From Nanobdellota archaeon (GTDB taxonomy: Archaea > Nanobdellota > Nanobdellia > Pacearchaeales > GW2011-AR1), in the NCBI GenBank assembly GCA_038045445.1, contig JBBSYC010000001.1, positions 35,140 to 99,139 on the forward strand: a stretch of 64,000 bases of DNA, in the 5' to 3' direction. Under the pieces are notes generated by a model. It was given only the letters and a program-made list of their open reading frames with translations, ran no database searches and was not told where the DNA came from. Within the stretch, counting starts at the first letter, position 1, and the number at the start of each line of letters is the position of its first letter. Positions 33,687-64,000 of the stretch are shown here, in pieces. A program made the position numbers and the translations under genes.

Positions 33687-34036
33687 TGCGAAAGAATCAT
33701 ACTCTTATTATAAGGAGAGATTATGCTAGTATTAATTTGATTTTGCACTCCTGATGCTGAAACTTCAAATGTTATTTGAGCCCAATTTCTTCCATATTGG
33801 ACACTAAAATTTCCCTTTAGCATCTTTGGTTTTTTAATTTCTTTTAGAAAGGGAAAGTATTCTGAAGCATTAAAAAACTCAAGACCAACTACAGAACCAT
33901 CAAAGCCATAATCTATGACTACATCTCCTTTTGGAAGCTCTAGATCAAAGCTAAATTTTGATTTATTGCCTTCGCTATGTAATGAGATAATGTCCTCATC
34001 TGAATCATAGCTTACTTTGAAAGATTTTTTCTCCAT
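33683..34036 (-). CDS. DUF2283-family small protein (putative antitoxin partner of DUF4258)
   Basis: SYDSDEDIISLHSEG...VVIDYGFDGSVVGLEFFNASE matches the DUF2283 pattern. Confidence 0.55.
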   Translation of the reverse strand: MEKKSFKVSYDSDEDIISLHSEGNKSKFSFDLELPKGDVVIDYGFDGSVVGLEFFNASEYFPFLKEIKKPKMLKGNFSVQYGRNWAQITFEVSASGVQNQINTSIISPYNKSMILSH

Positions 34037-34365
34037 AGTTTTTCAGCCTTTTTACTTGTTTTAATTACGTTGATTATGTTTAAATCCTTTTCTGCGTAAG
34101 ATATTACTATAATTATTGAATATTTTGAACTTATCTTGTAAATTAACTTATAGCGAGTTTCTTCTTTTCCCTTTAATATAACTTTTTGTTTTTGTGCATA
34201 ATATGGTTGTTTTGTAAGAATTAAATCAATTACTAAATCTTGGTTTACTCCTCTATCTTCCATCTTTTCAAGAGAATAATCCGTAAAATTTAATCTATCT
34301 TTAAAATATTGCTGATTTGTTTCAGTTACTGTTTTGATTAATTCTAATAAGTCTTTATTTTCCAC
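34012..34365 (-). CDS. DUF4258-family protein (putative RNase-type toxin)
   Basis: FTDYSLEKMEDRGVNQDLVIDLI pattern. Overlaps the downstream DUF2283 gene. Confidence 0.5.
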   Translation of the reverse strand: MENKDLLELIKTVTETNQQYFKDRLNFTDYSLEKMEDRGVNQDLVIDLILTKQPYYAQKQKVILKGKEETRYKLIYKISSKYSIIIVISYAEKDLNIINVIKTSKKAEKLWRKNLSK

Positions 34366-40123: not shown

Positions 40124-43100
40124 TTGCATTTTAGGACGATGAAAAGAGGTTTTTCTATTTTTGTTTTATTTGTTTCTCTCATTCTAATTCTTTCATTTTA
40201 TTTTGGAAATTTTTATGATTCTAATGAGACTATTAGCTCTGATTATTCTTGGCCTGCTTCAGTTTATCTGTTTCATGATTTAAATTTATTAAAATCTCCT
40301 AATATGGAGACTTTTTCTGGTTCCTCTTGCACCATTCTAGGTCTTTCTTGGGATAGGCAGAAGGCTAGGGCAGGAGATGATGTTAAATTACTTGTAAATA
40401 GCAAAGGTTGTGATGAGGGAACACATGTTCTTCTAACAATATCTGATTCTGATTTATTATCTGATGACACTCTTTCGTCTTATCGTTTACCTTTAGTTTA
40501 TGATGTTACTTCTGCAATATGGACAGTTCCTTCTTTTCCAGATGCATTTTCTGAATTTATGGAAGGAAAAGACATTGAGTTATATATTTCTGCAACTTTG
40601 GATACAGAGGATGTTTTTTCTACACTTGTTTATTCTCCTTCTAATTCATTAGATGTTAATGACCTTAATTTAGAAGATTATTCAATTCCTCTTCTTATTC
40701 CTCTTCAGGAATCTGATGGTATAGGAGATCCTATAACTGGAGATTTGTTGTCTCCAATTCTTTCTGTATCTGCTTCTGATTTAGAGGAAGACCCTCAAGT
40801 TCAATTGTCTGCAGTTTCTCTTGGGGAAAATCAAGTTTTCATAAAAAATGAAAATGTTTTTGCTGTGACTAATCATTTAGCTAGTGTTCCTATTTCTTTT
40901 CAACCTTGTGAATATTTTGATGGAGATAATAACATAAGGCTTAGAGATACTACGACCAATAATATTCTTACTACTCAAATTCAGTCTACGGGATATCATC
41001 AGAAAGATAGTGCCTCATGCACTAAAGGTTCTGTGATGTTTGCAGTTGCACATGTTAAAGTTAGTCTTGCTCCAGGAGAGGAAAGAATTTATGATATTAT
41101 TGAGTCTACTCAAGCAAACTCTCCGTTTGTTTATGCTCCAGAAGTTGATGATTTTGTTATAAGAGGAGCCATTCGGTCTGTTTCAACAGATATTTATGGA
41201 AGAGATTACGTTGCAGATATACCCTTTGCTGGTTTAGAGTGGGTCGTTAATGGAGATGTTGTTCGTATAGGAAAGTACACAAAAATGCATAGAATTGCGA
41301 ACCCTTCTTCATGCAACACTAATCAGCCTTGTTTGAGCTATTTGTTCTCTGTTGTTACTTATTTGACTTTTGTTAGCAATGAACCCATTGTTAGAACACA
41401 GGTTCTTGTTGTAAATGCGATGAACTTTGATGAACTTCAAACTCCGGACTGCTCTCAAACTCCTTGCGTTTATAGAAGGCTTGATAACAATCAACCTGAA
41501 TGGCAGAATGGAAATTTGAAGTATGGTTCTCTGCGATTTAATATAGATGGTTTTGCTAATCCGTTTTCATTTTATTTTCCAGATATGGATATAAGACAAC
41601 CTACTACAATATCCCAAGTAGATAATACTCATGCTACTGTTTGGACAATGCCTTCTGATGGGCAGTATACTTTAGGATGTATCTTAGGAAATACTGGAGG
41701 TTATTGTCCTCCAGAATTTGATAGAGAGAATAAGAATTATCTTGGAGAGGGTCAGAGTTTGCTTGTGGATGGAATTGTTAAGTTTGGGAGTTATAATACC
41801 CCTACATATACGACGCATAATTATTTTGCAGAGAATAAAATAGGTTCTGGACAATCACTTAAAAGATGGACTAAAGTAGACAGATTATTTGAATCTATGA
41901 TTCCAGATACTTCTAAATTAGGTGATTTGAGTAGATGGATATCTCCTGCAGATGCACAGAGCGAGTATGATTCTATTAGACCTTCTGCTTCAAATCAGAG
42001 GACTCATTTTGGGAATGCTCCTATTTATCAAACTAGGCTTACTGAAGCGAGCGAGAGTTTTCCGAGAGACTTTAGAGTGGATATGTATAGTAACCTTTGG
42101 GTAAAATATTTACTATCTTGTGCGGATAGATGTAATCCCAAATATCTTTATGCTCTTAGTTTTAAAAATAAACAGAGCACAATGTTTGTTGGACATCTTG
42201 TAGGTTATGAGCCTTGGGAACATCCCCTTGCTAACCCTTTAATTGATGATGGTACTGGGGGGATACCATTTAGTAGTTCTGCTGGTGCTGAAAGACTTTG
42301 TTATTCACAAAACCCATTTAGAACGACTTACAGAGATACTCTTGGTTTTTGTAATGTTCAGACTCCAAATGCTCACTTATATGATTATGGTGATTTGGGA
42401 ATTGGAGAGGGAAGAGCCCCCCATCATGAATGGAGTGCTTATGGAAGAACTCATTGGGGAACTAGCGAAGCAGAATATGTTTATGCTTCAGGAGACTTGA
42501 TGTTAAGAGATGTTTTCATGAGCACTGCAAAACTTCATGCTAATGTAATTCATCACTCTCCTGACTTGACTCTTACGAAACCAGCAAGTGGTCCTGCAAG
42601 GGGTATTGGGAGAGTTGCTGTCGGCGTTGAAAAAGCTGCGTTCATGACTAATCCATTGATTCAAAGTTATTATTCAGATTCTCTCAAGAGATGGCTTTCG
42701 AGAATTGATGAGAGATTAAATAAGCAGAATCCTGGAGATAGAGGATATAATCCTGTGACTGGAGATCCTTATGCGGTGGGACATTTGGGAATTGATGCTT
42801 GTAATGATGTCGTTTTCGGAAATGGAGAGCTTTGCGGAGAGCAGGTTTGGATGGAGGCTCTTGCTGCTCAAGGTTTAATGGAGATAAGACAGAATATTCT
42901 TGAAACAGGGACACAATATATTCAACTTATGGATACTATACTCTTTCATTTATCAAGATATCTTTTTGATTTCGGATATAAAGATCCTTCACAAGTCAAA
43001 AATAATTTTGTTATTTCCCATCCTATTACCGGACAGTCAATAACTGTTAATGAGGGTCTTGGATATCTGGCTTATTGGACTGCTCATGGGCCATCTCCAG

Positions 43101-46100
43101 GAGTGTCCGTTGTTACAACATATCCTCGATATAATTATGGCCCTGAAACTACAGACCATTGGCACATACCTAATGCTCTTTGTTTGCTTGCCAAGTTCTA
43201 TTCTCCAGATACTACGCGCCAGAACATAGCATTGAAATCTTTTGAGGCTTCATTTGGGTATAGAGGTTATACTTTGAAAGCTGAAAGCGGATCTCATAGG
43301 CTTAAGGATATTTTGCCTCCATCTCTTTCAGTAATCTCTGCGGACTTTTTATGCTCTTTGACACAGTTAAAAAATATTCCGACACCTAATGTAGTTAATC
43401 CTCCTGCGTGTCCTGACGCTGATGCTGACGGATATTCTACTTGTTTAGGAGATTGCAATGATGCAAATCCAAATATTCATCCTAATGTTCTTGAGAGTAG
43501 TGGTCTTTGCAGTGATTCAGTGGATAATAATTGCAATGGTCTACGAGATTGTGAGGATACGGGATGTTTTCTTTGTGGAGATAATACTGCTTGTTATTCT
43601 TCTCTTTATTGTAACTCTAATTCTATAGCTTATTGTGGAAATCTTGTAGTTAATAATCCAAATGCTGTTGGTCTTCAGGAAACTTGCGATGTCAATCCTG
43701 CTCCGCCTCAACTTATCTCTGTAAGAGGTAGTGGACAGAATTCTCTTGGTGACGGAAGATGTATCCCTCCAGGAACTTTACCTGCGCATGGACAAGCTTG
43801 TACTTATGCAATTGCGGCTACATGCGGAGATAATATGGTAAATCGACAATCAGAAGAATGTGATGGAACAGCTGTTGGGATATGCGGGCCTGCAACGTCA
43901 TGTTCTGCATCTTGTTTATGTAATGGTCCTGTATTGAATAGTATTTCTCCGAATAGTATAACTAACCCTACTCAAAATGTAGTTGTTACTGCTAGCGGAA
44001 GAGGTTTTGTTGCTACTCCCACTGTAAAGATTAATAATATTCCCCAGAGCAGTGTTCCTGTTTCTTTTGTTAATCAAAATTCTATTTCCTTGACTTTTAC
44101 GCCCGATTTTTTACAGATTCTTGGTTCTGGAACTCATCAATTAAGTCTTGTAAATCCAAATACTCAAGAGACAAGGAGTCTTTCTTTGACTACTACTATG
44201 AGCGGAGGATTATGTACTAACGCTTTGATGGTTGGTTCAGGAAAACCTTATGCTAAGCCAAGTGATGCTTTGGCAGTTGCTCAAGATGGAGATACAATAC
44301 TTATATTCCCTGGAACTTATCTTGATTATGCAACAATTACTCAAGATAATTTAATTATTAGAGGAGTAAGAGATGCCTCTGGAAACAGACCTAAAATTAC
44401 ATGGAATGGAAATGTGCCTAATGGAAAGGCTCTTTTTGTTTTAAGATCTCCACACATAGTTATAGATAATTTAGAGATGTATGGCGCCGAATCTTCAAGT
44501 GCTAACGGTGCTGCTTTGCGTGTTGAAAGTCCTGTTACTCAATTAACTGTAAGAAATAGTTATTTCCATGATAGTCAGATGCAAATTCTCCAAGATGAAG
44601 GAAACTTAGCATTTACGGCGCTTTTAGAGTATAATGAGTTCGATCATCAAGGAAGTTGTACTAATAATGATTTGAATCTTTGTTCACATTTGGTTTATAT
44701 TAATGGAGGAGCATCCGTGACTGTTCAGAATAATTATTTCCATCATGCGCGGAGAATGCATCATTTTAAGAGCAGAGCTGCACAAAACTTTGTTTTGTAT
44801 AATAGATTTACAGATGAAGAGACGGGACAATCTAATTACCATATAGACTTTCCACAAGGGGGAGATAATTATGTAATTGGAAACTTATTTCATCAAAACA
44901 TAAACACGAGAAATTCTAATATAATTGTAGTTAATACAGAGATTAATGATCCTTTGAAACCAGCACATACACTTCAGAACTTATATGTTGTCGCAAATAC
45001 TTTTGTAGATGATTTTGCAGGAGTTATGGTTTCTTCAGATTATAATACAAACATACGCACTCTAAATAACTTCGTTATAAGAAATAATATATTTATTACT
45101 TCTGCTTTGCAACAAAATGCTTTTGGAGGAAATCCTACTTTCGATTCAAACCTTTTGAGTACCATTGGTTCATTTACGTGGTTTAGAAATGTTTTAGGTT
45201 ATGATTATTCTCTTACAGGGGGTTTGTTAAACACCGGTTCTCCTTATGGTTCTAGTGTTACTGGTTATTCTTTGACTCCTTCTTATCAATATGTTCATAA
45301 TGCCAAACGTGAGACAAGGTCTGCTTCTGGGGCTCCAGATGTTGGAGCTTATGAGTTTTCAGGGGGAGGAGGAAATACTTGCTTCTCTTCTACTGAATTA
45401 TGCGACGGAATAGATAATAATTGTAATAGTCAGATTGATGAAGGAATAGTATGTACTTCTTGCAGTGGCGGACCTTCTGGACCAAGTATTGTTTCAGTTC
45501 AGCCTTATAACTTTTCTATAGCAAACAATACCTTAGTTGTAGTTACGGGGCAAAACTTTGCAAGTAACTCTGATATAAGAATAAATGGTCTTCCAGTTAG
45601 CACTATTAGAACATCTCTGACAGAATTACGTTGGAATTACATTGCTAATTCTTTGTTGGCTGGATTGAATACTTTAACAGTTTATAATCCTCCTACTGGT
45701 TTATCTTCAGGACCATTTTATCTGAATCTCACTTCTCCTCCTAATGCTCCTTCTAACTTTGTTGCAATTCCTCAGTCTTCTACAGTTATTTTGTTAACAT
45801 GGATAGATAATGCAAACAATGAAGATTATTTTGAAATGGAAAGAAGACCTCTTCCTTCAGGTACTTTTGCTATAATGCCTGGAGCTAGTCGTTTGAATCC
45901 AAATAGCAGAACTTATAACAACACTGGCCTTTCCGTTGGAGCAAGTTATGAATATCATGTTCGTGCAGTTAACTCTGCAGGAACTTCGGCTTGGTCTAAT
46001 TTGGCAAATGCGACAACTGCATCTAATCTTGTCCTTACTTCGTTGAATCCCAACTCAACAGTTAATGGTGCCTCTACAAATGTTCAGATGATAGGGACTG

Positions 46101-47356
46101 GATTCTCGACTATTAATTGTGGTATAGAGATTAACAGAATTCTTGCTAATTCTTCTCTTTATGGAATTAATTGTGTAAGTTCTACCAGAACGGACTTTGT
46201 TGTTCCCCCTGGATTATCTTTAGGGAATTATAGCTTGGTTGAAGTTACCTTGAATAATCTCGGAGGAGTTATTGCACGAAGCAATTCTTTAAACCTTACA
46301 GTAGTTAGTGGAAATGTTCCTGATGGAGATGGAGATGGAGTTCCAGATTCTATTGATTTGTGTCCTAATACTCCTGCAAATGTAAGGACGACTTATGGAA
46401 TTAATGTATTCAATGGATGTCCTATTCCTAATATTTATCCAATGACTGCTTCGCTCACAACTGACTTCTCAAATGTTCCTAATCTATTTGCTGTCGAGAA
46501 TTTGAGAATGGGCATTGCTGGAAACTCTAGCGTTACTTTTAGGGCTCCCATTAGCATGTTATGGGTGAATACTACTGCAGTTCCTTCTCATCATTTGCCT
46601 ATAGGTCTTGGAGAATGGGCAATTAACTTATCAGAGAATTATGTTTTCATTAATTCTACAAAGAGACCTATCTTTAATGTTTCTGCTGAAGTAACTTTCT
46701 TTGATACTGGACTTACTAATCCTGTTTTGTATAGAGATGGAGTTATTTGTGATTCAAGTAAATGTCATATTCTTTCTTTCGATACAATATCTGGAGATGT
46801 TGTAGCAAATGTTTCTGGGTTCTCTAGCTACTCTGTCTCTCAAGGTTCTTGTGGAGACTCTATGTGTTCTATTGCAGAGACTTGCTCTAGCTGTTCTGCT
46901 GATTGCGGCTCTTGTGGAGGAAGTAGTGGGGGTGGTTCTTCTGGAGGAGGTTCCGGTGGAGGTGGAGGAGGCGGAGGTTCTAGTGGTGGAGGTGGAAGAA
47001 CAAGTTCTGGACCAGTTATTAATCGTGTTGTTACTCAATGTAGTGATGGTCTTGACAATGATGGAGATGAATTAATAGATTATCCTAGAGATAGAGGGTG
47101 TTTGAATAACGAAGATGATGTTGAACTTGACTCAAGCAATCTTGTTACCGACTCTGAAGATAAAGAAAGGTTAGGAAATTCCGAAGAGAGTTTGGATAAA
47201 AATATAAGATTGGTGTTTTGGATTGTTCTTGCTACTCTTTTGATTGGAATCTCTATTGTTTTGATATTGATATTAAAATATTCGAGAAATCATAAAAGGA
47301 TTAATGCTCTTGCAAAAATGGTGTCTGCTAATGCTTTTGATTTAAAACATAGTTGA
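40124..47356 (+). CDS. giant surface protein 2 (2410 aa)
   Basis: N-terminal TM/signal. Cys-rich MopE/TSP3-like CxDxDxDG motifs (CPDADADGYSTCLGDCNDANP..., CDGIDNNCNSQIDEG). IPT domains. Right-handed beta-helix repeats (NSYFHDS..., VQNNYFHH...). An FN3-like domain. The shared cassette. Gly linker, QCSDGLDNDGDELIDYPRDRGC, TM, KYSRNHKR. Confidence 0.7.
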   Translation: MHFRTMKRGFSIFVLFVSLILILSFYFGNFYDSNETISSDYSWPASVYLFHDLNLLKSPNMETFSGSSCTILGLSWDRQKARAGDDVKLLVNSKGCDEGTHVLLTISDSDLLSDDTLSSYRLPLVYDVTSAIWTVPSFPDAFSEFMEGKDIELYISATLDTEDVFSTLVYSPSNSLDVNDLNLEDYSIPLLIPLQESDGIGDPITGDLLSPILSVSASDLEEDPQVQLSAVSLGENQVFIKNENVFAVTNHLASVPISFQPCEYFDGDNNIRLRDTTTNNILTTQIQSTGYHQKDSASCTKGSVMFAVAHVKVSLAPGEERIYDIIESTQANSPFVYAPEVDDFVIRGAIRSVSTDIYGRDYVADIPFAGLEWVVNGDVVRIGKYTKMHRIANPSSCNTNQPCLSYLFSVVTYLTFVSNEPIVRTQVLVVNAMNFDELQTPDCSQTPCVYRRLDNNQPEWQNGNLKYGSLRFNIDGFANPFSFYFPDMDIRQPTTISQVDNTHATVWTMPSDGQYTLGCILGNTGGYCPPEFDRENKNYLGEGQSLLVDGIVKFGSYNTPTYTTHNYFAENKIGSGQSLKRWTKVDRLFESMIPDTSKLGDLSRWISPADAQSEYDSIRPSASNQRTHFGNAPIYQTRLTEASESFPRDFRVDMYSNLWVKYLLSCADRCNPKYLYALSFKNKQSTMFVGHLVGYEPWEHPLANPLIDDGTGGIPFSSSAGAERLCYSQNPFRTTYRDTLGFCNVQTPNAHLYDYGDLGIGEGRAPHHEWSAYGRTHWGTSEAEYVYASGDLMLRDVFMSTAKLHANVIHHSPDLTLTKPASGPARGIGRVAVGVEKAAFMTNPLIQSYYSDSLKRWLSRIDERLNKQNPGDRGYNPVTGDPYAVGHLGIDACNDVVFGNGELCGEQVWMEALAAQGLMEIRQNILETGTQYIQLMDTILFHLSRYLFDFGYKDPSQVKNNFVISHPITGQSITVNEGLGYLAYWTAHGPSPGVSVVTTYPRYNYGPETTDHWHIPNALCLLAKFYSPDTTRQNIALKSFEASFGYRGYTLKAESGSHRLKDILPPSLSVISADFLCSLTQLKNIPTPNVVNPPACPDADADGYSTCLGDCNDANPNIHPNVLESSGLCSDSVDNNCNGLRDCEDTGCFLCGDNTACYSSLYCNSNSIAYCGNLVVNNPNAVGLQETCDVNPAPPQLISVRGSGQNSLGDGRCIPPGTLPAHGQACTYAIAATCGDNMVNRQSEECDGTAVGICGPATSCSASCLCNGPVLNSISPNSITNPTQNVVVTASGRGFVATPTVKINNIPQSSVPVSFVNQNSISLTFTPDFLQILGSGTHQLSLVNPNTQETRSLSLTTTMSGGLCTNALMVGSGKPYAKPSDALAVAQDGDTILIFPGTYLDYATITQDNLIIRGVRDASGNRPKITWNGNVPNGKALFVLRSPHIVIDNLEMYGAESSSANGAALRVESPVTQLTVRNSYFHDSQMQILQDEGNLAFTALLEYNEFDHQGSCTNNDLNLCSHLVYINGGASVTVQNNYFHHARRMHHFKSRAAQNFVLYNRFTDEETGQSNYHIDFPQGGDNYVIGNLFHQNINTRNSNIIVVNTEINDPLKPAHTLQNLYVVANTFVDDFAGVMVSSDYNTNIRTLNNFVIRNNIFITSALQQNAFGGNPTFDSNLLSTIGSFTWFRNVLGYDYSLTGGLLNTGSPYGSSVTGYSLTPSYQYVHNAKRETRSASGAPDVGAYEFSGGGGNTCFSSTELCDGIDNNCNSQIDEGIVCTSCSGGPSGPSIVSVQPYNFSIANNTLVVVTGQNFASNSDIRINGLPVSTIRTSLTELRWNYIANSLLAGLNTLTVYNPPTGLSSGPFYLNLTSPPNAPSNFVAIPQSSTVILLTWIDNANNEDYFEMERRPLPSGTFAIMPGASRLNPNSRTYNNTGLSVGASYEYHVRAVNSAGTSAWSNLANATTASNLVLTSLNPNSTVNGASTNVQMIGTGFSTINCGIEINRILANSSLYGINCVSSTRTDFVVPPGLSLGNYSLVEVTLNNLGGVIARSNSLNLTVVSGNVPDGDGDGVPDSIDLCPNTPANVRTTYGINVFNGCPIPNIYPMTASLTTDFSNVPNLFAVENLRMGIAGNSSVTFRAPISMLWVNTTAVPSHHLPIGLGEWAINLSENYVFINSTKRPIFNVSAEVTFFDTGLTNPVLYRDGVICDSSKCHILSFDTISGDVVANVSGFSSYSVSQGSCGDSMCSIAETCSSCSADCGSCGGSSGGGSSGGGSGGGGGGGGSSGGGGRTSSGPVINRVVTQCSDGLDNDGDELIDYPRDRGCLNNEDDVELDSSNLVTDSEDKERLGNSEESLDKNIRLVFWIVLATLLIGISIVLILILKYSRNHKRINALAKMVSANAFDLKHS
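46345..46905 (+). repeat. copy B of the 561-bp cassette (direct repeat, offset 7224 bp)
   Basis: Read directly; see copy A. Confidence 0.85.
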
Positions 47357-47380
47357 GGGATAATTTATATATCTTAAAGC

Positions 47381-50300
47381 TTGTTTTTGTTTATGAGAGT
47401 TAATTATTTTTGGTATTTGTTTTTTGTTTTAATTTTATCAATTATATTAATTACTTATTTTGTTAAGGTTAATAATCTTGAAGGCTCTTTTTCTACTCCT
47501 AGAGACGACGGAATCCTTGGATCTCTTGAAGATTCTGAAGGTCAGCTTTCTCCTCTTGGAGGTGATGAATCCTTTATAATCGAGAATACCTTAGCTCCTG
47601 CAGGTGCTTCTTTAGAGGGGACTAATGCTGTGGGTTTTGATTCTTCTAAAGGAGTTTACTATTTTGAATTTAGGGATTTTAATGATATTCTTTTAGATAG
47701 ATATGAAATAAATATTAGTAACTCCGAAGTTCAAAAAGGGATTTTAAAAATTAGGGAATCTCGAAGAAATTTCTTTCCAGTGGTTGATGGGGGGACTCTT
47801 TATAGGACCCCTTCAGGACAAATACTTCAACCAATTGATCTCGCATTAAAATCCCAGATTAACTCTTTTAATCATCAACAGACTTCTTTAAATAGTGTTC
47901 AATTTCAATATGATGAAACTGTTAGTTCTGAGACCGAAACCGTTTTACTTACAAAGCAGTATACGTTTTCCATTAAAGGGGGAACACTCATTATAGAGGT
48001 TAAACAAATTGATTCTCCTCTTACTCCTACATCGAATTATGCAGGATTTACTTTTGGTCAGGCGAATAATGTTGAGAATCCTCGAAATATATCAATACCT
48101 TATATGGAAATAGCACCCATAACTGTTGTAAATAACAGCTTCTTTTCTTCAACATATATTGATTGGTCTTTAAGCAATTCAAATTATTATCCTCAATTAG
48201 TTTGGTCTAATTCTAATTCTCCTGGAAATTTTAAAAATTCTTACTCTTCAAAATATGTTGCTCGTCAAAGTAATACATACAATAATATTGAAGAAACGGG
48301 ATATGTTTCAGTTAGTAATAATGTTGAGGATCTTATGATGGTTCCTCACAGACAGCCATCCCCTTATCGCAATCAATTGGACTCGAGACCAGTAATTTCT
48401 GTTTGGAATCTTTGGGGAAATTTTCAAACTTCGGAAGGAGTTCTTTCCTATTTTCATGATTCTCTAGGTATTGATAATCTGACTGTGATTTACAATAGAT
48501 GGAGTCAGAATTTCTGTGCTCCTCCCCATGATCTTCCTGCAGCAATGAATCTCGGCGGAAATGAGGCACTACTTAGGTTAGTAAATAAAGCTAAATCTTA
48601 TGGTTATTTATTTGCACTTTATGAAGTTTATTCAGATTTAAATCCTAGTAGTCCATTTTGGGAAAAAAATCAAGATAAAATCTCGCTTAATTCAAGTGGT
48701 GCGAGGCGTTTAGGGTGGTTTGCAGAAAGTTGCCCTTTTCCCCAAAACTATGATCTTTCGAGTGATAAGAGTTTGTTCTTTGCTCAAAATATTTCTCCTC
48801 AAATTAAAGAAACTTTTAATCCTAATGCGGTTTATACAGATGTAATTCCAAAACAATATATGACTAATGGTGGAATAGATTATTCTGCAACTAATTTAAA
48901 TTCTAGTTCTATTGGTGCTACTATGCAAAATGCTATGCATTTGTTTGATTTTCTTCATTCTAATTATAACTCTCCTCTTTTTGGAGAGGGTGGTCAAGTT
49001 CCAATTTCTCCAAGAGTAATGTATGGAGGTTTGGTTGATTCAATTGGAGGTGAAATTGTTGGTAGGGAATTTGCCCCCATATTACCAGATTATGAACTTA
49101 AAATTATAAAACCTTTAATGGCAAATCAGGGAATGGGTATGCCTCAAAGATGGGTTGGAGATGGGACAATACACCATGTCGGAGATTTGGACATAGCTAA
49201 TTTAGATTTGGATAAGTATAATTCAATGGCTATCTCTTATGGTCATACTGGGTATATAGACGAATTGTTGAGTCAAACAAATCCCCTTTATTATCTGTCC
49301 AAATATTATGTAACTGAATATTATTTATTTAGGGAAATTCAAGAGAGATATCTTTCTTCTCCAGTAATATCAGTTTTATATGAAAATTCTTCTGGAAATA
49401 TGATTGATCTTAATGAAGCTTTGCGCCAGAATCTAGATTTTAGTAAGACTAAATTAAGAACTTCTTATTCTAATGGTCTCGTGGTATATGTTAATCACGG
49501 TTCTTCTATTTGGGTAGTTACCCAAAGTGGGAAAACTTATTATCTACCATTAAATGGTTGGTTGGCTATTGCCCCAGATTTTATAGAGTATTCTGCTTTA
49601 GTAGACCAAAATGGTAATCCTTCGATTAGTGGACATAGGGCAGATTATATTTATTCCCCCAATTATCTTTTCGTGAATGGCCGCGGAGTTGAAACCTCGT
49701 TTGGAAATGATTATTTCAATAATCCTATAATTGCAACTAATATTTTAGTAATTAAACCTACTGGTTGGATAGTTCTTGAAACTTTAGACCCTAATATAGG
49801 GGGACAATTTGTTCCTTCGGTTTTTCATTTAGTTCCATCAATAAATAGGATAAATCCAGATAATGTTATTAATAATAAGGATAATTTAATTAGAGTTCAA
49901 GGACTTAATTTTACGTTTACTAATTTTTTAATGCTTAATGATATTCTCTTAGATGATAGCATTTATCAAGTTAATATTGTTAATTCTACAGATATAACTT
50001 TTGTTCTTCCATCTGGATTTTCGACCGGAGATTATAATTTAACTGTTATTCATCCAATTGGTCAAACTGGTAGTCTGACTAGTAATTCCTTAATTTTAAG
50101 GGTTGAATCTCCAAGTGGTACTGGCGGAAGCTCATCCGGTGGTGGTTCTTCCGGTGGTGGAGGCGGAGGAGGCTCTGGAGGTCCTGCAGTCGGAGGAGGT
50201 TTAATAACTCAATGTAACGATGGAGTCGATAACGACGGAGATTTGTTAATAGATTATCCAAATGATTTGGGGTGCAGTAGTTCTAATGACAATAGTGAAA

Positions 50301-50527
50301 TTGATTCTGAATTGATAATAGGATCTACTTCTGGTTCAAATTATACCTCTGGCAACTCAGGGGCTGTCGGAGGAAGGGATTCTGGAGAGAATATGAGCTT
50401 AATCTTTTGGGTTCTTCTTGTATCTCTTTCAATTGCTATAATTATTGTATTTGTTTTAATTATAAGACATTATAGGGCGCGTAAAAGAATAGATTCACTA
50501 ACAAGATTTTCTAATTACTCTAAGTAA
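47381..50527 (+). CDS. giant surface protein 3 (1048 aa)
   Basis: N-terminal TM, large uncharacterised ectodomain, IPT-like domain, the same C-terminal module. Tail RHYRARKR. Confidence 0.65.
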   Translation: MFLFMRVNYFWYLFFVLILSIILITYFVKVNNLEGSFSTPRDDGILGSLEDSEGQLSPLGGDESFIIENTLAPAGASLEGTNAVGFDSSKGVYYFEFRDFNDILLDRYEINISNSEVQKGILKIRESRRNFFPVVDGGTLYRTPSGQILQPIDLALKSQINSFNHQQTSLNSVQFQYDETVSSETETVLLTKQYTFSIKGGTLIIEVKQIDSPLTPTSNYAGFTFGQANNVENPRNISIPYMEIAPITVVNNSFFSSTYIDWSLSNSNYYPQLVWSNSNSPGNFKNSYSSKYVARQSNTYNNIEETGYVSVSNNVEDLMMVPHRQPSPYRNQLDSRPVISVWNLWGNFQTSEGVLSYFHDSLGIDNLTVIYNRWSQNFCAPPHDLPAAMNLGGNEALLRLVNKAKSYGYLFALYEVYSDLNPSSPFWEKNQDKISLNSSGARRLGWFAESCPFPQNYDLSSDKSLFFAQNISPQIKETFNPNAVYTDVIPKQYMTNGGIDYSATNLNSSSIGATMQNAMHLFDFLHSNYNSPLFGEGGQVPISPRVMYGGLVDSIGGEIVGREFAPILPDYELKIIKPLMANQGMGMPQRWVGDGTIHHVGDLDIANLDLDKYNSMAISYGHTGYIDELLSQTNPLYYLSKYYVTEYYLFREIQERYLSSPVISVLYENSSGNMIDLNEALRQNLDFSKTKLRTSYSNGLVVYVNHGSSIWVVTQSGKTYYLPLNGWLAIAPDFIEYSALVDQNGNPSISGHRADYIYSPNYLFVNGRGVETSFGNDYFNNPIIATNILVIKPTGWIVLETLDPNIGGQFVPSVFHLVPSINRINPDNVINNKDNLIRVQGLNFTFTNFLMLNDILLDDSIYQVNIVNSTDITFVLPSGFSTGDYNLTVIHPIGQTGSLTSNSLILRVESPSGTGGSSSGGGSSGGGGGGGSGGPAVGGGLITQCNDGVDNDGDLLIDYPNDLGCSSSNDNSEIDSELIIGSTSGSNYTSGNSGAVGGRDSGENMSLIFWVLLVSLSIAIIIVFVLIIRHYRARKRIDSLTRFSNYSK

Positions 50528-50540
50528 TAATGTAATATAT

Positions 50541-51635
50541 TTATTCTATTTGAAATCTTAATATTGCCCCTGCGCCCTTTGTGATATTGTAGAATTGTTC
50601 GCCTTCTTGCGTTTCATCTGAAATCATTATAACTTCAGAACCCATATCTATTGCCAATCTTTCTAGTTCTGCTACTTGCTTCTTCTCTAATTTTTCAGAT
50701 ATTAACAATTTGTGGACTGCTCCCCTTTCTAAAGCTACTTTTGTTTTTTCAATACCATATGCTGCTTTTTCAGGATATTTTCCCAAGGTCATGAAAAACT
50801 CTTCTATTATCTTTTTTTCCTTTATTATTTCTTGCTCTGCAATATCGCTTTGTGAGGCTTCTACTAAAAGTTTTAGTCCATGTTCATCTACATATCCTAT
50901 GTCTTTAACTGCTATGACTTTCTCTTTTAATTTTGTTACTAATTGACCTTCTTCTAAGAACTCTTCTTTTGTAGGTATTGGTCCACCTACAAGAATTCCT
51001 TTTAATCTAGGTAATTCAAAGAATAATTCTTTCATTGCTTCTGCAGTTCTTCTGAAAAATTCTTTTGCCAAACCTTCTGTTATTCTGTGAAAACGCTGAG
51101 AACTTTGACCTCCTGCCCTCACTTTGCTTGGAACTCCCGAAGTTAAATGTCTTAGAACTTTGATTTGTTTTCCTTCTAATAATCCTAGAGTTGCTTCCTG
51201 TCTATCTATTACTACAAGAGCATACACTTCGTCTGTTTGAAGCATGTCTTTTAATGGTTCCGTTACAAAAACTTGATCGCACCTATACATTCTGACTCTT
51301 AGGGGTTTTGGAGGTTCTATTGCCCATAATTTTATATCAGATACTCCTTCTTTTTCAGATATATTTCCAGCATATAAAGCAAGACCATTTTTTGGAGTTG
51401 CCTTCGTATTCTTTAGCGTTCTGATTATCATATCTATTGCATCGGTAACTGCACTTCTTGTTGCTTTAGATTTAATGTTATCTGCTGTTGAACGCTCTGA
51501 CTCTAATTGTTTTGTTACACTGTGAATATTGAAATCTACTGGAATGAGCACTGTGACTAATTCAGTATGTCTTCCTCTGACACTTTCCAATTCTTCAATT
51601 TGTTCTTCTAGTTGAAGTTTTTGTTTGTCGTTCAT
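50541..51635 (-). CDS. prf1: peptide chain release factor aRF1
   Basis: NIKS motif (TADNIKSK) and GGQ motif (RAGGQSSQRF). Confidence 0.9.
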   Translation of the reverse strand: MNDKQKLQLEEQIEELESVRGRHTELVTVLIPVDFNIHSVTKQLESERSTADNIKSKATRSAVTDAIDMIIRTLKNTKATPKNGLALYAGNISEKEGVSDIKLWAIEPPKPLRVRMYRCDQVFVTEPLKDMLQTDEVYALVVIDRQEATLGLLEGKQIKVLRHLTSGVPSKVRAGGQSSQRFHRITEGLAKEFFRRTAEAMKELFFELPRLKGILVGGPIPTKEEFLEEGQLVTKLKEKVIAVKDIGYVDEHGLKLLVEASQSDIAEQEIIKEKKIIEEFFMTLGKYPEKAAYGIEKTKVALERGAVHKLLISEKLEKKQVAELERLAIDMGSEVIMISDETQEGEQFYNITKGAGAILRFQIE

Positions 51636-52027
51636 GATGGTTTTATTCTCCTATACTTTCCTAGTTCGAGGATAGTTATAGAATTTATTAGATTATCTGG
51701 TTCTATTTCGTCTATAAGGCTTTTTAAGGTATTTGTTATTTGGATTCCAGTAAAAGAGTAAGGAAGCCTTATAATTATTAGACCATAATGGCTACTCTTG
51801 GAGTATCTTAATGGGTTGCCAAAATTCTTATCTTTTGTTATTAGTATAGCTTTTTTATTTTTAGCATATTCTGCAATCTTGCCATCTTCCTCTCCTTGTA
51901 ACTCTGTTAAACTAATATGTTCTACTTCAAAACCTTTGCTTTTTAGCATTTCTACCGAGGATTTAGGAACATTTTCATCTAAAACAAATTTACATTTATT
52001 TTTGTAGTTCTCTAACTTCTTCACCAT
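51632..52027 (-). CDS. DUF5615-family PIN-like putative toxin
   Basis: N-terminal KFVLDENVP...GFEV and KAILITKDKNFG match the DUF5615 pattern. Stop overlaps the aRF1 start (ATGA). Confidence 0.65.
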   Translation of the reverse strand: MVKKLENYKNKCKFVLDENVPKSSVEMLKSKGFEVEHISLTELQGEEDGKIAEYAKNKKAILITKDKNFGNPLRYSKSSHYGLIIIRLPYSFTGIQITNTLKSLIDEIEPDNLINSITILELGKYRRIKPS

Positions 52028-52214
52028 GTATTAAAGAAGCAATATATCTCAATACTATAAGAATATCTTCTTTTCTTAAATTATATTCTTTTTCTATTTC
52101 TTCATAAGTCATTCCTGAAGTAAGCATTCCAAGAACCTCTTCAACAGATATTCTTGTTCCTTCTATTATAGGTATTCCATGTCTTACTCTTTGATCTATT
52201 ATTATTTTTCTCAT
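51996..52214 (-). CDS. DUF433-family putative antitoxin
   Basis: GIPIIEGTRISVEEVLGMLTSGMTYEEIEKEY...EDILIVLRYIA matches DUF433. 32-nt overlap with DUF5615. Confidence 0.65.
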   Translation of the reverse strand: MRKIIIDQRVRHGIPIIEGTRISVEEVLGMLTSGMTYEEIEKEYNLRKEDILIVLRYIASLIHGEEVRELQK

Positions 52215-52264
52215 ATATCTTAATGAATTGAAGAGTTAATAAAAGTTGGGTTTCTTTAATTGCG

Positions 52265-52400
52265 TTTTAAACCTTATGAATTGATGTCGAAGTGTTTGGA
52301 AACCACTTACTTTAGTGCGTGGAACACTTCGAGCATCCAAAAATCGAGCACCATTCAAATCGTATGCTAAAGCATGCGGTGGTGCATCGATTTTTTGATA
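52265..52400 (+). ncRNA. candidate structured small RNA (two long nested hairpins ending in a T6 run); identity unknown, strand uncertain
   Basis: Two long imperfect hairpins ending in TTTTTT at 52391-52396 (details in the ncRNA finding). GC-richer than flanks. The overlapping minus-strand 67-aa ORF has no recognisable features. Confidence 0.25.
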
Positions 52401-52676
52401 TTCATAGGCCTTCGCTTGTAGAGGACAAGCTTCAGACATTGCTAATTGAGATTAGAAGGCTTAAAATTATAATCTGAGATAATTTTAAGGGTTGCGGGTT
52501 AAAAAACTAATCTAATTGACCTATTGCTCTGTCTTTTTCTCTAACAAACGGTCCAATCCCCTTAAATATCCCAAAGTAGCTTTTTATCTTCTTATTTTTT
52601 GTTTTTTTATTATATTTTATTTTCATCTTAACCAAAGTATTATAATAAAACACCATTGGAAACTATTAAATGTTTT

Positions 52677-55046
52677 CTATTGCAAATTGTGACAAGCTAC
52701 TAAATCTTTCTCAAAATTCTTTAGTGATGTTGGGATTCTTATGTTTTTTATTGCTTCTTTCAAGGAAATTCCATTTTCCTTTTTTTGTTTCCATACTTCG
52801 CCGTTGAACTGCATGATACTTTCTATTATTTTTTCTGCTTCTTTGTTTTCTTTTCCCTTTGGAAATGTCGTTTTATGTAAGATTATATCTAGCCCATTAC
52901 CTATTACAGAAGTTACTTGGGGGAGTATAGGGTATAGTAGAGTTATCATTCTTTCTAATAGATAGTATAGGGTATACTTTGCTGATTCGCTTTCTTCCTT
53001 GCTGAAATTATTTGATTCGTTGTATGCTCTGCTTTTTATCATCTCAATGTAATGTGAAGCAAAAATGTCCCAGAGAAATTTTCTTAATGTTTCTGCTGGG
53101 GTATGAAAGTCATAGTGTTCGTAAGATATATCTATTCTTGATGTTTGTGTGTCAATATAACTTATGAATAATTTATCTAACTCTGTTAACTTTGATTTTT
53201 TTGGTTTTTTGAACTGGCAAACAAACCTTGATACATTAACTAGCTTGTTTATGGTTTTTGTTTCTGCGCCTATTCTATCCATTGAACATTTTAGGTCCTG
53301 TTCTGCTAAATTTCCTTCTAATGCTGCCCAAAATCTAAATGCTTCTGCTCCATGTGTTTTTAGTATGTCTTGTGGGTCGATTCCATTTCCCAAAGACTTT
53401 GACATTTTTCTTCCTTGGCTGTCCACTATATGCTGATGTATCCAGACATCTTTGAACGGTGGTTCTCCCATCTCTAAATATCCTCTAAGCATTGTGTAAT
53501 ATAACCATGTTCTAACTATTTCCTTGCCTTGAGGTCTTAATGAAATAGGGTATGCTTTTTTTGCAAATTCTGAGGGATATTTAATCATATTCAACTCTGA
53601 AATAGAGGAGTCAAACCATGTATCAAATACTTTTTCTTCACCAACCCATGTTTTTTCTTTAAAGTCAGATATTTTTCCTACTTTTTTTCCATTTTCAAAT
53701 ATTATTGATTCTTTTGGAGCATTTTCTTTTGTTGGTTCATAATATTTTCCTTTAGGAGGCACTGCAATAAGATTTTCAGAACGCCATAAAGGAATAGGAG
53801 TTGCATAAAATCTTCTTCTTGATATTGGCCAGTCTATTGAAATAGAATCTAACCATCTAATTAAGATTTCTTTTGATTCCTTTGGATAAAACTCTATTTT
53901 TTCCATAACTTTTTTTAATTTTGGAATAAATTCTAACTGTTTAAGATAATATTCTGGCATCTGTATAAATTCTATTTCTGCTCCGGATCTTTCCGATGTT
54001 GGGGTTCTATGAACTATACTTTCTTGTTTTATGATTAGATTTTGTTTTTGCAAATCTTCTATTATTTTTTCTCTTGCTTCTTTTACTTTTAATCCTTGAT
54101 ATGATTTTGCTATTTCATTCATTCTACCTTCTTTTGTTATCGCTATTTTTGGTTTTAGATTCATTTCCCTGAAGAACTGAATATCTGTAACATCTCCTGC
54201 TGAACACATCATCATTAATCCTGTTCCTTTGTCAATTTGCGCAAATGGATGCTCTTGTATTGGAACTTCATAATTGAAGATAGGGACAATTGCTTTTTTT
54301 CCTTTTAGGTGTTTGTATCTCTTATCTTCTGGATTATATACAACCATTGCACAAGTACATAATAGCTCAGGTCTTGTTGTTGCTATAACTATTTTTTCTT
54401 TAGAATCTTTTATTTTCCATTCAATATGGTTGAATTTTGATGGAATTTCTTTATATTCTATTTCAGAATCTGCAACTGTTGTTCTTAGTTTGGTATCCCA
54501 GTTATTTATTCTGTTATCTTCGTAAACCAGATTTTTATGAAACAAGTCAATAAATGTATCTTGAGTTATTTTTCTGTATTCTGGAGAATCTGTGTGATAG
54601 ATATCTCCTATTTTATTCCCTTTTTTATATGAAGAATATGAGTGACCTAGTCTTGCAAATGAGTCAACTGATTCTTCAGATGCAGATTCTAATAATTTTT
54701 TACAATGCTCTATAAATTGTTCTCTACCTACTTTAAAGGGAGATATGTTAAACTTCTTCTCTGTTGCTAATTCTATAGGGAGACCGTTTCTATCTAGACC
54801 TAAAGGAAATAAGACTTCGAAGCCTTTCATTCTTTTGTATCTTGCAAAGAAGTCCATGTAAGTGTATGTTGTTGCATGGCCCATATGTATGGGGGTGTTA
54901 ACATAAGGAGGGGGAGTATCAATAGAGTAAATTTCCTTTTTTGTATTTGGATTAAATGGGAAAAGGTTGTTTTCTTTCCAGAAGGTTGTTATCTGCTTTT
55001 CTATCTCAATATTCCAGTTTTTAATTTCTGATAGTTTTGGTTCCAT
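52677..55046 (-). CDS. valS: valyl-tRNA synthetase
   Basis: HMGH (HIGH) and KMSKS motifs. ValRS-specific TTRPELL...NPEDKRY...KGTG and DWPISRRRFYATPIPLW. 789 aa. Confidence 0.8.
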   Translation of the reverse strand: MEPKLSEIKNWNIEIEKQITTFWKENNLFPFNPNTKKEIYSIDTPPPYVNTPIHMGHATTYTYMDFFARYKRMKGFEVLFPLGLDRNGLPIELATEKKFNISPFKVGREQFIEHCKKLLESASEESVDSFARLGHSYSSYKKGNKIGDIYHTDSPEYRKITQDTFIDLFHKNLVYEDNRINNWDTKLRTTVADSEIEYKEIPSKFNHIEWKIKDSKEKIVIATTRPELLCTCAMVVYNPEDKRYKHLKGKKAIVPIFNYEVPIQEHPFAQIDKGTGLMMMCSAGDVTDIQFFREMNLKPKIAITKEGRMNEIAKSYQGLKVKEAREKIIEDLQKQNLIIKQESIVHRTPTSERSGAEIEFIQMPEYYLKQLEFIPKLKKVMEKIEFYPKESKEILIRWLDSISIDWPISRRRFYATPIPLWRSENLIAVPPKGKYYEPTKENAPKESIIFENGKKVGKISDFKEKTWVGEEKVFDTWFDSSISELNMIKYPSEFAKKAYPISLRPQGKEIVRTWLYYTMLRGYLEMGEPPFKDVWIHQHIVDSQGRKMSKSLGNGIDPQDILKTHGAEAFRFWAALEGNLAEQDLKCSMDRIGAETKTINKLVNVSRFVCQFKKPKKSKLTELDKLFISYIDTQTSRIDISYEHYDFHTPAETLRKFLWDIFASHYIEMIKSRAYNESNNFSKEESESAKYTLYYLLERMITLLYPILPQVTSVIGNGLDIILHKTTFPKGKENKEAEKIIESIMQFNGEVWKQKKENGISLKEAIKNIRIPTSLKNFEKDLVACHNLQ

Positions 55047-62714: not shown

Positions 62715-62918
62715 TTAAATAAGATTTTTAACATTAATTTGAGAGAGTGATTTTAGAGGTATTCTTTTACTTACATTTAATAGTTCTATCCCTAAAATAT
62801 TTGAATCTTTATCTAAATCAATTATTGTGAAGTCATCTATTTTCTTATTTTTTGCGAATTCTCCACTACGAAACTCTATATAAATTGCATCTGCTTCTTT
62901 ATCGTAAGTTATTTCCAT
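62715..62918 (-). CDS. DUF2283-family small protein (second copy)
   Basis: TYDKEADAIYIEF...IIDLDKDSNILGIELLNVS. Confidence 0.55.
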   Translation of the reverse strand: MEITYDKEADAIYIEFRSGEFAKNKKIDDFTIIDLDKDSNILGIELLNVSKRIPLKSLSQINVKNLI

Positions 62919-63133
62919 TTTGTTATATCCAGTAAATTGTTATTACCTTTATGTGTTTCTGTTTTTTCACAACATATTTCAATTGTTCCATAGGGTAATT
63001 TTTTGCTAAAATAATATTGTTCGTGTTTCTTATCTATTTTTTCAGGATAATTAATAATATCCATTACTTCTTGTTCTGTAATTTTTCTTTTTATAATTCT
63101 TGCTTTAGCATGTTCTGTAAATATTATTTTCAT
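62909..63133 (-). CDS. DUF4258-family putative toxin (second copy)
   Basis: IIFTEHAKARIIKRKITEQEVMDII pattern. Overlaps the DUF2283 gene by 10 nt. Its stop overlaps the MetRS end region. Confidence 0.5.
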   Translation of the reverse strand: MKIIFTEHAKARIIKRKITEQEVMDIINYPEKIDKKHEQYYFSKKLPYGTIEICCEKTETHKGNNNLLDITKWK

Positions 63134-64000
63134 TGTATTTTTTGAAATAAGATTTCTGATTTAACTATTTTGCTTTCTTTTAGAGGTTTATCTAATTCGT
63201 CTAAGGATATTTTAAAATTGAACGTTTTTGATATTTTTTCTGCTGTTTCTGGCATGAATGGGAATAAGAGTATTGCAATGTTTTTTATTGCAGTTGCTAA
63301 TTCGTATAAAACTTTTCTTGAGTTCGATTCACTCTTGCTGCGAGCTTCCTCGCCTTGCTGTGGAGCTTCTCGCTGCGGTGAACAAACTTCCCAAGGTTTC
63401 TTTTCTTGAATATACTCATTAGTTTTGTCTACATAGTGAAATATAATTTCTAAAACTTTATGCAATTCATAGTTATTGAAATGTTCGTTTACTTGTTTTA
63501 ATGTTTCTTCTATTTCTAAAGTATTTTTTGTTTTTTCAATTCCATATTTTTCTGCTAGAGTTGAGACTCTGCTTACTAGATTGCCTAGTTTGTTTGCTAA
63601 TTCATTGTTGTGACGTTCTATTAGCATTTCTTGAGAGAAATCTCCATCATCCCCTAAAGGTGTTTCTCTCAATAGGAAGTATCTTGCACTGTCTACTCCT
63701 GCAATTTTTACTAAATCATTTATTTTTATTGCATTACCTGCAGATTTACCCATTTTTTTATTATTTACAGTCCACCATCCGTGAGCGAATACTGTTTTTG
63801 GCAAGGGTAGTTTTACTGCTTCTAATAATGCTGGCCAGTAAACTGTGTGAAACCATAAAATGTCTTTACCTATTAAATGAAGATCTGTTGGCCAGAATTT
63901 GTTTAGTTTCTTATTTTCTTGAGTTGCACTGTAATAGTTGAATAACGCGTCAACCCAAACGAAAGCAACGTGTTTTTTATCAAATGGAAAGGGAATTCCC
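63130..64000 (-). CDS. metG: methionyl-tRNA synthetase, C-terminal portion (gene continues beyond the window end)
   Basis: HGWWTVNNKKMGKSAGNAI (KMSKS-type), anticodon-binding region RHNNELANKLGNLVSR...EKKPW...FPFMPETAEKI. Reading frame stays open upstream of the track's 63804 start. Confidence 0.8.
   Translation of the reverse strand, partial: GIPFPFDKKHVAFVWVDALFNYYSATQENKKLNKFWPTDLHLIGKDILWFHTVYWPALLEAVKLPLPKTVFAHGWWTVNNKKMGKSAGNAIKINDLVKIAGVDSARYFLLRETPLGDDGDFSQEMLIERHNNELANKLGNLVSRVSTLAEKYGIEKTKNTLEIEETLKQVNEHFNNYELHKVLEIIFHYVDKTNEYIQEKKPWEVCSPQREAPQQGEEARSKSESNSRKVLYELATAIKNIAILLFPFMPETAEKISKTFNFKISLDELDKPLKESKIVKSEILFQKIQ

Follow-up and report, generated by a model that had tools for sequence, protein, structure and literature searches.

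Modules in which a PIN-type protein is paired with a COG2442 protein were predicted to be toxin-antitoxin (TA) systems by Makarova et al. 2009 (PMC2701414), and the toxins of the COG4634/PIN_10 family were placed in the Mut7-C group of PIN-like domains by Matelska et al. 2017 (PMC5499597). One cyanobacterial case, VapBC10 of Synechocystis, has been validated experimentally by Ning et al. 2013 (PMC3834315); there the DUF433 antitoxin activates its own operon, and growth arrest by the toxin with neutralisation by the antitoxin has been shown for this system alone (PMC3834315). Here we describe a pair of this kind, a DUF433 gene followed by a DUF5615 gene, that runs directly into prf1, the gene for the archaeal release factor aRF1, in a 64,000-nucleotide (nt) stretch of contig JBBSYC010000001.1 from a Nanobdellota archaeon (hereafter the window). 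Our results indicate that the pair sits between what appears to be the former TATA box of prf1 and the prf1 start codon, so that prf1 has lost the leaderless promoter geometry that its relatives keep and is probably now transcribed from the promoter of the TA pair.

The preliminary description of this locus had placed DUF433, DUF5615 and prf1 in this order on the minus strand, with an overlap of 32 nt between the first two genes and with the DUF5615 stop codon overlapping the prf1 start as ATGA. The coordinates bear out both the order and the 32-nt overlap, and the ATGA can be read directly from the sequence (Table 1). Profile searches, which had been named there as a check on the domain assignments, recover the DUF433, DUF5615 and eRF1 domains in Pfam; the PIN_10 match to the DUF5615 protein falls slightly under the cut-off, and the DUF433 protein also matches PDB entry 5af3 (E 5.8e-4). 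NIKS and GGQ motifs are present in the translation of prf1, and aRF1 aligns from its first residue and along its whole length, at 85-93% identity, with its counterparts in the ~10 closest metagenome-assembled genomes of Pacearchaeota, Woesearchaeota and Nanoarchaeota; we assign the source organism to the DPANN archaea. Identical proteins, arranged in the same way, were recovered on at least 17 contigs; these come from several groundwater samples of Hainich and from Logan runs, with differing assemblers and projects, and one of them is 145 kb long at 39x coverage. The arrangement is therefore real, and the probability that an assembly chimera or a sequencing error created the junction is practically nil. 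All 13 contigs with an identical aRF1 carry the pair, with no presence/absence polymorphism among them.

The pair itself is a predicted type II TA cassette of the known DUF433 (COG2442)/DUF5615 (COG4634, PIN-like) family, carried by a population of groundwater Pacearchaeota. Antitoxin first, it recurs as a unit in other archaeal contigs (L033, L035-L038, L040-L045 and L176-L178) that represent at least five different neighbourhoods, and the DUF433 protein of the window is 70% identical to that of L033.

The evidence that prf1 has lost its own promoter comes from comparison with the other genes of the window and with related genomes. A position weight matrix (PWM) for the TATA box was built from the window's own genes, with a training run on 56 of the 59; a scanner for sigma-70 promoters and terminators was not applied, since the host is an archaeon. 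In 21 of the 56 genes the highest-scoring TATA-like 9-mer (NTTTAWAWA) begins at -30, in 38 at -28 to -32, and most window genes are without a Shine-Dalgarno (SD) motif, which is consistent with a genome whose norm is leaderless mRNAs, each with its own promoter. Among the SD motifs found at genes without a -30 TATA are GAGGT, whose last base is at -7 in two genes, and GGAG, whose last base is at -6 in one. In 13 relatives, where valS or vapC precedes prf1, a TATA box of 4.8-6.8 bits stands at exactly -30 of prf1, and in L178/L179 one of 8.4 bits (CTTTAAAAG) stands at the same position, overlapping the DUF5615 stop codon. For prf1 of the window, the best score at the -28 to -32 spacing is -4.5 bits, among the lowest of all window genes. 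The cassette has a TATA box of its own whose spacing to the DUF433 start codon agrees with a leaderless mRNA. Oligo-T runs act as termination signals in archaea; the sense strand from 52338 to 51272 contains no run of T5 or longer, compared with a window average of ~4 per kb per strand. The comparison of prf1 upstream regions that had been proposed in the preliminary description thus favours a shared transcript.

How this came about can be read to some extent from the junctions. In blastn comparisons with relatives, homology extends through valS, resumes at 52610-52436 and is then gone until 51635-51638 at the prf1 ATG. The segment 52610-52436 matches the sequence of L017 just 5' of its prf1 TATA, and downstream of it lies a putative displaced core promoter that matches the prf1 TATA regions of L017, L008, L005 and L001; its core, TTTAAAACGCAATT, within GTTTAAAACGCAATT, is identical to the prf1 promoter of L001 (TTTAAAACGCAATTctcacaatcacagtcATG). 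The cassette has no DNA or protein match in 20 related loci, and the right junction, tcATG, matches the native sequence upstream of prf1 in L001, L015 and L020. These comparisons place the cassette, in this population only, between the apparent former TATA of prf1 and the prf1 start codon. Farther upstream, the 49-aa open reading frame (ORF) at 52507-52656 has no Pfam match, and its C-terminal tail KSYFGIFKGIGPFVREKDRAIGQLD is 75% identical over 24 residues to the VapB tail of L020 and 74% identical to the tail of a small ORF of L017, o124.

Table 1. Features of the valS-prf1 region of the window and gene orders at related loci (positions are those of the window)
Feature	Position	Strand	Basis or details
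prf1 (aRF1)	50541-51635	-	364 aa; Pfam eRF1_1/eRF1_2/eRF1_3, E 4e-14 to 4e-31
ATGA stop/start overlap of DUF5615 and prf1	51632-51635	-	read from sequence: DUF5615 TGA 51634-51632, prf1 ATG 51635-51633
DUF5615 (COG4634, Mut7-C-group PIN-like) toxin-like gene	51632-52027	-	131 aa; Pfam PF18480, E 5.7e-22
GGAG, weak distant SD-like motif	51648-51651	-	-16 to -13 of prf1
Window-specific cassette (own promoter, DUF433, DUF5615)	51638-52257	-	~620 nt; replaces the ~13-15-nt TATA-to-ATG spacer of prf1
Lost canonical toxin start	51992-51995	-	in-frame TGT 51994-51992; out-of-frame ATG 51995-51993, then TAA
DUF433 (COG2442) antitoxin-like gene	51996-52214	-	72 aa; Pfam PF04255, E 2.4e-16, 59.7 bits vs cut-off 23.6
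Cassette TATA box TTTTATTAA	52236-52244	-	starts exactly 30 nt before the DUF433 ATG; PWM 5.6 bits
Putative displaced former prf1 core promoter GTTTAAAACGCAATT (TATA + 6 nt)	52258-52272	-	58 nt 5' of the DUF433 ATG; PWM 6.0 bits
Double-hairpin palindromic repeat, core of the 164-nt insertion	52270-52412	- (as modelled)	covariance model; ~125-145 nt
164-nt insertion relative to L005/L008/L017	52273-52436	-	between ...caattagcaatg and the TATA box; empty site caatg/tttaaaac
Spacer matching the sequence just 5' of the prf1 TATA in L005/L008/L017	52437-52500	-	blastn 85% over 62-68 nt; ends at 52436
T6 run right after the remnant ORF; terminator-like signal for the valS unit	52501-52506	-	T-run scan
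49-aa ORF, remnant with VapB C-terminal tail	52507-52656	-	C-terminus KSYFGIFKGIGPFVREKDRAIGQLD; DNA homology to L017 1586-1759
valS (valyl-tRNA synthetase, 789 aa), conserved neighbour 5' of prf1	52677-55046	-	ORF; tRNA-synt_1/Anticodon_1 matches
L033			valS - 115-aa gene (opposite strand) - TrmB - DUF433 - DUF5615 - VapB - VapC - o102 - prf1
L178/L179 (same aquifer)			VapB - VapC - DUF433 - DUF5615 - 24 nt - prf1
L176/L177			DUF433 - DUF5615 - 39 nt - ValRS-like synthetase
Other contexts of the closest pair homologues			beside rpS10/EF-1alpha, or beside dCMP deaminase

The toxin gene departs from its family at both ends. Its 10 closest homologues outside this population are 117-120 aa long and 49-56% identical, begin with MKF(V/I)LDEN, and start 1-3 nt past the DUF433 stop or overlap it by 4 nt; by this measure the 32-nt overlap of the window is a departure from the normal arrangement of the family. 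Where the junction reads TAA-A-ATG-AAA-TTT in the homologues it reads TAA-ATG-T-AAA-TTT in the window; the codon at the homologous start position is TGT (Cys12), and the canonical start beside the antitoxin stop is missing. The frame is open solely through an in-frame ATG at 52027, which lies 33 nt upstream of the homologous start and adds 12 residues, and a motif and PWM scan upstream of this ATG found neither an SD motif nor a TATA box. The mutated canonical start probably lowers toxin output. At the other end, the DUF5615 protein finishes in ..RIKPS where its homologues finish in ..RIREP or ..RIRKL, one residue earlier; this extra residue, together with the native-like tcATG at the right junction, indicates that the native stop of the toxin was lost there and that the present TGA comes from the overlap with the prf1 ATG.

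Between its ends the protein seems well preserved. In an alignment of 11 sequences all invariant residues (D17, N19, D48, T64-K65-D66 and H80-Y81-G82) are retained, as is the nearly invariant E18, and the conserved acidic residues of the PIN-like domain (D17, D48 and D66) are among them. An AlphaFold2 (AF2) model has a mean predicted local distance difference test score (pLDDT) of 83.5, with low values over residues 1-10. Fold searches with the DUF5615 protein gave no informative match, in agreement with the statement that this PIN-like group has no solved structure (PMC5499597).

We think it likely, with some reservation, that prf1 is co-transcribed with the pair, because prf1 has no TATA at -30, this TATA is conserved in relatives and no T5+ runs intervene. 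prf1 would then follow DUF433 and DUF5615 as the third cistron of one mRNA, which is directed by the TATA box of the cassette and is leaderless at the DUF433 ATG, and a further start from the displaced old TATA, ~28 nt farther upstream, is possible. aRF1 could be translated through termination-reinitiation at the ATGA, through de novo initiation to which the GGAG contributes, or through both. Of 14 archaeal and bacterial gene pairs that were tested for coupling at an ATGA overlap, 13 proved to be strictly coupled (Huber et al. 2019, PMC6728339), and coupling requires that the genes overlap or lie very close to each other (Huber et al. 2023, PMC10666635). In the window, strict translational coupling would seem less probable than co-transcription because the toxin's own initiation looks impaired. 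Of the two proposals made in the preliminary description, the tie between release-factor expression and the TA promoter thus gains indirect support from the lost prf1 TATA, the cassette TATA and the missing T5+ run; for translational coupling the ATGA overlap stands, and the coupling itself is less secure, as the canonical toxin start is lost and the GGAG could allow independent initiation. A search for operators near the promoter gave just a 9-nt direct repeat, TCAATTCAT (minus strand, at 52284-52276 and 52231-52223, 53 nt apart), and a 9-nt AT-rich inverted repeat, both of borderline significance against chance; one copy of the direct repeat lies just 5' of the old prf1 TATA and the other just 5' of the DUF433 ATG. 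A literature search found no paper describing a TA-prf1 operon.

The interval in which the pair lies is itself prone to such elements. Of 20 related loci, 18 have valS 5' of prf1 and in the same orientation, and none of the 20 encodes a homologue of DUF433 or DUF5615. The gap between the two genes is ~40 nt in L004 and L006, ~680-800 nt in L001, L005, L007, L008 and L020, ~1200 nt in L017 and 1500 nt in L015, and in the last seven of these relatives it holds a vapBC pair, with VapBs of the AbrB/MazE type (69-72 aa; E 1.9e-7 in L001) and PIN VapCs (126-127 aa; E 4e-18 in L001). Both TA types, vapBC and DUF433-DUF5615, occur in the interval of L033, whose aRF1 and ValRS are 63% identical to those of the window, and of L178, whose aRF1 is 64% identical over the 148 residues on the contig. 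We regard the valS-prf1 interval as a TA hotspot across Pacearchaeota, in which at least two TA families have been exchanged, lost or stacked. The architecture had been called unusual; TA pairs beside prf1 turn out to be common in the lineage (vapBC in seven relatives, DUF433-DUF5615 in L033 and L178), and what remains unusual is that prf1 no longer has a promoter of its own at the usual position, which is seen in one population only.

Several observations weigh against the reading that prf1 depends on the cassette's promoter and on passage of ribosomes from the toxin gene. With its canonical start lost and an ATG at 52027 that has neither SD motif nor TATA, DUF5615 may be poorly translated, and reinitiation would then be a weak source of an essential protein; the GGAG lies ~6-7 nt farther from the ATG than the well-placed SD motifs of the window; the AT-rich coding sequence offers TATA-like 9-mers from which a leadered mRNA could start; and the direction of the event is unsettled, as the TA family lies near valS or prf1 in four lineages and so may be ancestral there and lost elsewhere. 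It could be, first of all, that a cryptic promoter in the 3' part of DUF5615 drives prf1, with a short leadered mRNA translated through the GGAG and with no regulatory effect of the adjacency. We hold this to be unlikely. The best TATA-like hit inside the cassette, CTTAAAAAG (51728-51720, -93 of prf1, 6.5 bits), and an AT-rich TAATAAATTCTATAA that spans roughly -56 to -41 relative to prf1 could serve such a promoter and the GGAG its mRNA; moreover, in L010 and L012, more distant relatives, prf1 is preceded by GGAGGT or AGGTG instead of a -30 TATA, so that an SD-led prf1 on a leadered mRNA has a putative precedent in the clade. However, TATA-like hits occur inside the cassette only at the frequency that is background in so AT-rich a genome (per strand, 3 per kb with >=6 bits), no candidate stands at the canonical spacing, and the norm of the genome is a TATA at -30 and a leaderless mRNA. 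A promoter between the pair and prf1, which had been named as an observation that would speak against shared expression, was thus not found beyond these background-rate hits.

Somewhat less remote, though still doubtful, is the idea that the TA pair has been neutralised or is decaying, that no toxin is made and that the cassette now amounts to a long 5' leader with an antitoxin gene before prf1, which would fit co-transcription and exclude translational coupling. The TGT at the canonical start with an out-of-frame ATG-TAA in its place, the poorly equipped ATG at 52027 and the lost native stop are what such decay might leave behind, whereas a 131-codon ORF that is intact to its stop in a genome of 30% GC, the retention of all invariant and nearly invariant residues, the confident AF2 model and an intact DUF433 as close to its L033 homologue as noted above are not easily reconciled with it. 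As to origin, we suggest that aRF1 most likely became linked to the pair through a local insertion or rearrangement, as a side effect of it rather than as part of a designed regulatory circuit. The pair might instead be ancestral in the valS-prf1 interval, as in L178 and L033, and have been lost by the close relatives, with local deletions or rearrangement in the window removing vapBC and the prf1 TATA. DUF433-DUF5615 pairs near valS or prf1 in L033, L178/L179 and L176/L177 agree with such ancestry, as do identities to the window pair (66-70% and 53-56%) that resemble those of aRF1 and ValRS (63%), and the vapB-tail remnant indicates that deletions happened here. Yet a neighbour-joining tree, itself weak, nests the window among ~10 close relatives that are all without the pair, which lends weak support to a gain by insertion rather than to retention from an ancestor; the old prf1 TATA, with its 5' spacer, is found on the upstream side of the cassette, the order expected if something had been inserted downstream of that TATA; and the gene order is unlike that of L033. 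We consider ancestral residence a minority possibility, and lean weakly towards gain by insertion.

The locus represents a known TA family in an unusual and probably accidental operon context, within a lineage-wide TA hotspot, and thus a local oddity rather than a new type of system. If the operon is real, expression of aRF1, presumed to be the sole release factor of this tiny genome, would depend on the promoter of a selfish element, and the supply of aRF1 might also depend on termination at the toxin stop, a step that itself needs aRF1. The locus would offer a natural case for two questions, namely how TA modules persist in streamlined genomes and how archaea with leaderless mRNAs express a gene whose promoter has been lost; because the -30 TATA rule holds genome-wide, promoter loss is easily scored in these uncultured archaea. 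In practical terms the locus is of modest importance, since the TA family is not new and the event is limited to a single population.

It would be tempting to go further and to see in this arrangement a strategy of persistence. A cassette lodged between the promoter and the start codon of aRF1 would secure its own transcription and become nearly undeletable, since only deletions that restore the TATA-to-ATG spacing would be viable, and this could be of value in the deletion-prone, ultra-small genomes of DPANN archaea. This idea, which draws also on the recurrent occupancy of the valS-prf1 slot by vapBC and DUF433-DUF5615, is speculative and in our judgement improbable. If it were true, the DUF433 antitoxin would control the supply of release factor, in line with the operon activation seen in Synechocystis (PMC3834315), and the mutated toxin start would be a compensation that permits expression of the operon at the level of a housekeeping gene.

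Upstream of the displaced promoter, the core of the 164-nt insertion is a repeat with two long hairpins (folding z-scores -5.8 and -7.1). Ten compensatory pairs were found among four copies, and across 98 copies pairing is kept in 96.5% of the cells and double compensatory changes are present at 37 of 45 pairs, values that none of 500 shuffles reached; G-U pairs are nearly absent. The closing stem differs in sequence among copies, and a 20-mer from the repeat recurs exactly in groundwater metagenomes, in at least 120 stretches and frequently at the ends of contigs. A known RNA in the GC-richer gap 52215-52676 was considered and rejected: Rfam, searched at the gathering threshold over the whole window and at E <= 10 on 52150-52750, yielded nothing beyond chance miRNA-like hits, and ARAGORN found nothing in the gap. 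A 67-aa ORF at 52236-52439 was likewise rejected as a real protein, as an exhaustive HMMER search hit only a stretch of ~40 aa at arbitrary positions in unrelated Pacearchaeota proteins, and we interpret it as a spurious read-through of a repeated DNA element. Gene callers indeed translate the repeat as QKIDAPP..GARFLDARSVP..GFQTLRH within unrelated proteins. In a Logan contig an archease (P0026, 180 aa) is interrupted in frame by the repeat, its Pfam Archease match being split into two stretches, and P0017, which we read as a small toxin and which has no Pfam match, is apparently interrupted likewise.

These features point to a palindromic mobile repeat that acts at the DNA level more than to a structured RNA, and the repeat looks like an undescribed mobile palindromic element of Pacearchaeota; our literature search found no paper describing it. 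No target-site duplication was seen at the sole empty-site comparison (L005/L008/L017), and a tblastn search of a TA panel against 80 repeat-bearing loci found no consistent association between the repeat and TA cassettes. The closest comparators are the REP/REPIN and other small palindromic repeats of bacteria (PMC3337134, PMC3733652), which are likewise short, multi-copy and non-coding, keep their hairpins by compensatory changes and show no target-site duplication (for the window repeat, at one empty site). The window repeat differs from them in belonging to DPANN archaea, in its length of ~125-145 nt with two long hairpins in direct orientation, and in being sometimes read through in frame within genes, such as that for archease; no transposase has been linked to it, although no search aimed at one was made.

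Several other genes of the window and of the related loci deserve mention. A second vapBC lies at 26545-27151 on the plus strand, with a MazE/AbrB-type VapB of 76 aa and a PIN VapC of 135 aa whose ORFs as called overlap by 32 nt; the PIN match begins at residue 20, and the true start of this VapC is perhaps downstream. A DUF4258 toxin-like gene (62909-63133, minus strand) has a 4-nt overlap with the end of an ORF of 207 aa (63130-63753, minus strand) that matches only the C-terminal part of methionyl-tRNA synthetase, another instance of a TA-like gene abutting a translation gene. At 33683-34263 (minus strand) a DUF2283 protein of 117 aa follows an 83-aa ORF without Pfam match, with a 25-nt overlap, and the two may form a TA-like pair. 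Convergent with prf1, two very large ORFs (40124-50527, plus strand; ~2405 and ~1044 aa) probably encode surface proteins; the former has weak fn3/TIG/MopE-like hits, and the latter, which is 1036, 1044 or 1048 aa long in different strains, ends in a Gly/Ser-rich stretch and a transmembrane-like tail.

Among the relatives, a small ORF without Pfam match is conserved between vapC and prf1 (o124, L017 1310-1684; o102, L033 5016-5324; 61% identical), and o124 of L017 ends with a copy of the VapB C-terminal tail, an end that the 49-aa remnant of the window resembles. In L009, L010, L011, L013 and L016, ValRS is just 34-38% identical to that of the window while aRF1 is 57-85% identical (85% in L009), which suggests that a distant homologue has taken the place of valS in some members of the clade. 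The match to aRF1 is interrupted at residues 177/178, beside GGQ, in L017 (2321-2739, 417 nt), L018 (4480-5768, ~1287 nt) and L019 (1866-3151, ~1284 nt); the interruptions are probably a mini-intein in L017 and full-length inteins in L018 and L019.

Compared with known DUF433/DUF5615 modules, the pair of the window shares the small DUF433 gene in first place and the PIN-like gene of ~120 aa in second, the tight spacing, a promoter of its own, the conserved acidic residues and the recurrence as a unit in many genomes. It differs in that the canonical toxin start is lost and the toxin ORF overlaps the antitoxin gene by 32 nt, in that the native stop is replaced by a TGA shared with the ATG of the next gene, and in that the pair is followed by a third gene, which is essential and has no promoter to itself; none of the experimentally tested members comes from DPANN archaea. 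With gene pairs coupled through ATGA (PMC6728339, PMC10666635) the junction shares the 4-nt overlap, the common direction of the genes and an SD-like motif within the upstream gene. Such pairs typically encode subunits of one complex, whereas the partners in the window are functionally unrelated and the upstream gene has a seemingly impaired initiation.

The vapBC pairs at the same site (L001, L005, L007, L008, L015, L017, L020, L033 and L178) share slot and orientation with the pair of the window and belong to the same class of element, a DNA-binding antitoxin with a PIN-type nuclease directly 5' of prf1; unlike the window, these loci keep a spacer of at least 38 nt (38 in L001) with a -30 TATA before prf1, and thus the prf1 promoter, and of vapBC the window has just the remnant of a vapB tail. 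Finally, a TA module also shares an operon with a housekeeping gene in relA-mazEF of Escherichia coli, where the TA pair lies downstream. Both cases would place a TA pair and a translation- or stress-related housekeeping gene on one transcript, but in the window it is the essential gene that lies downstream of the TA pair and that appears to have lost its own promoter.

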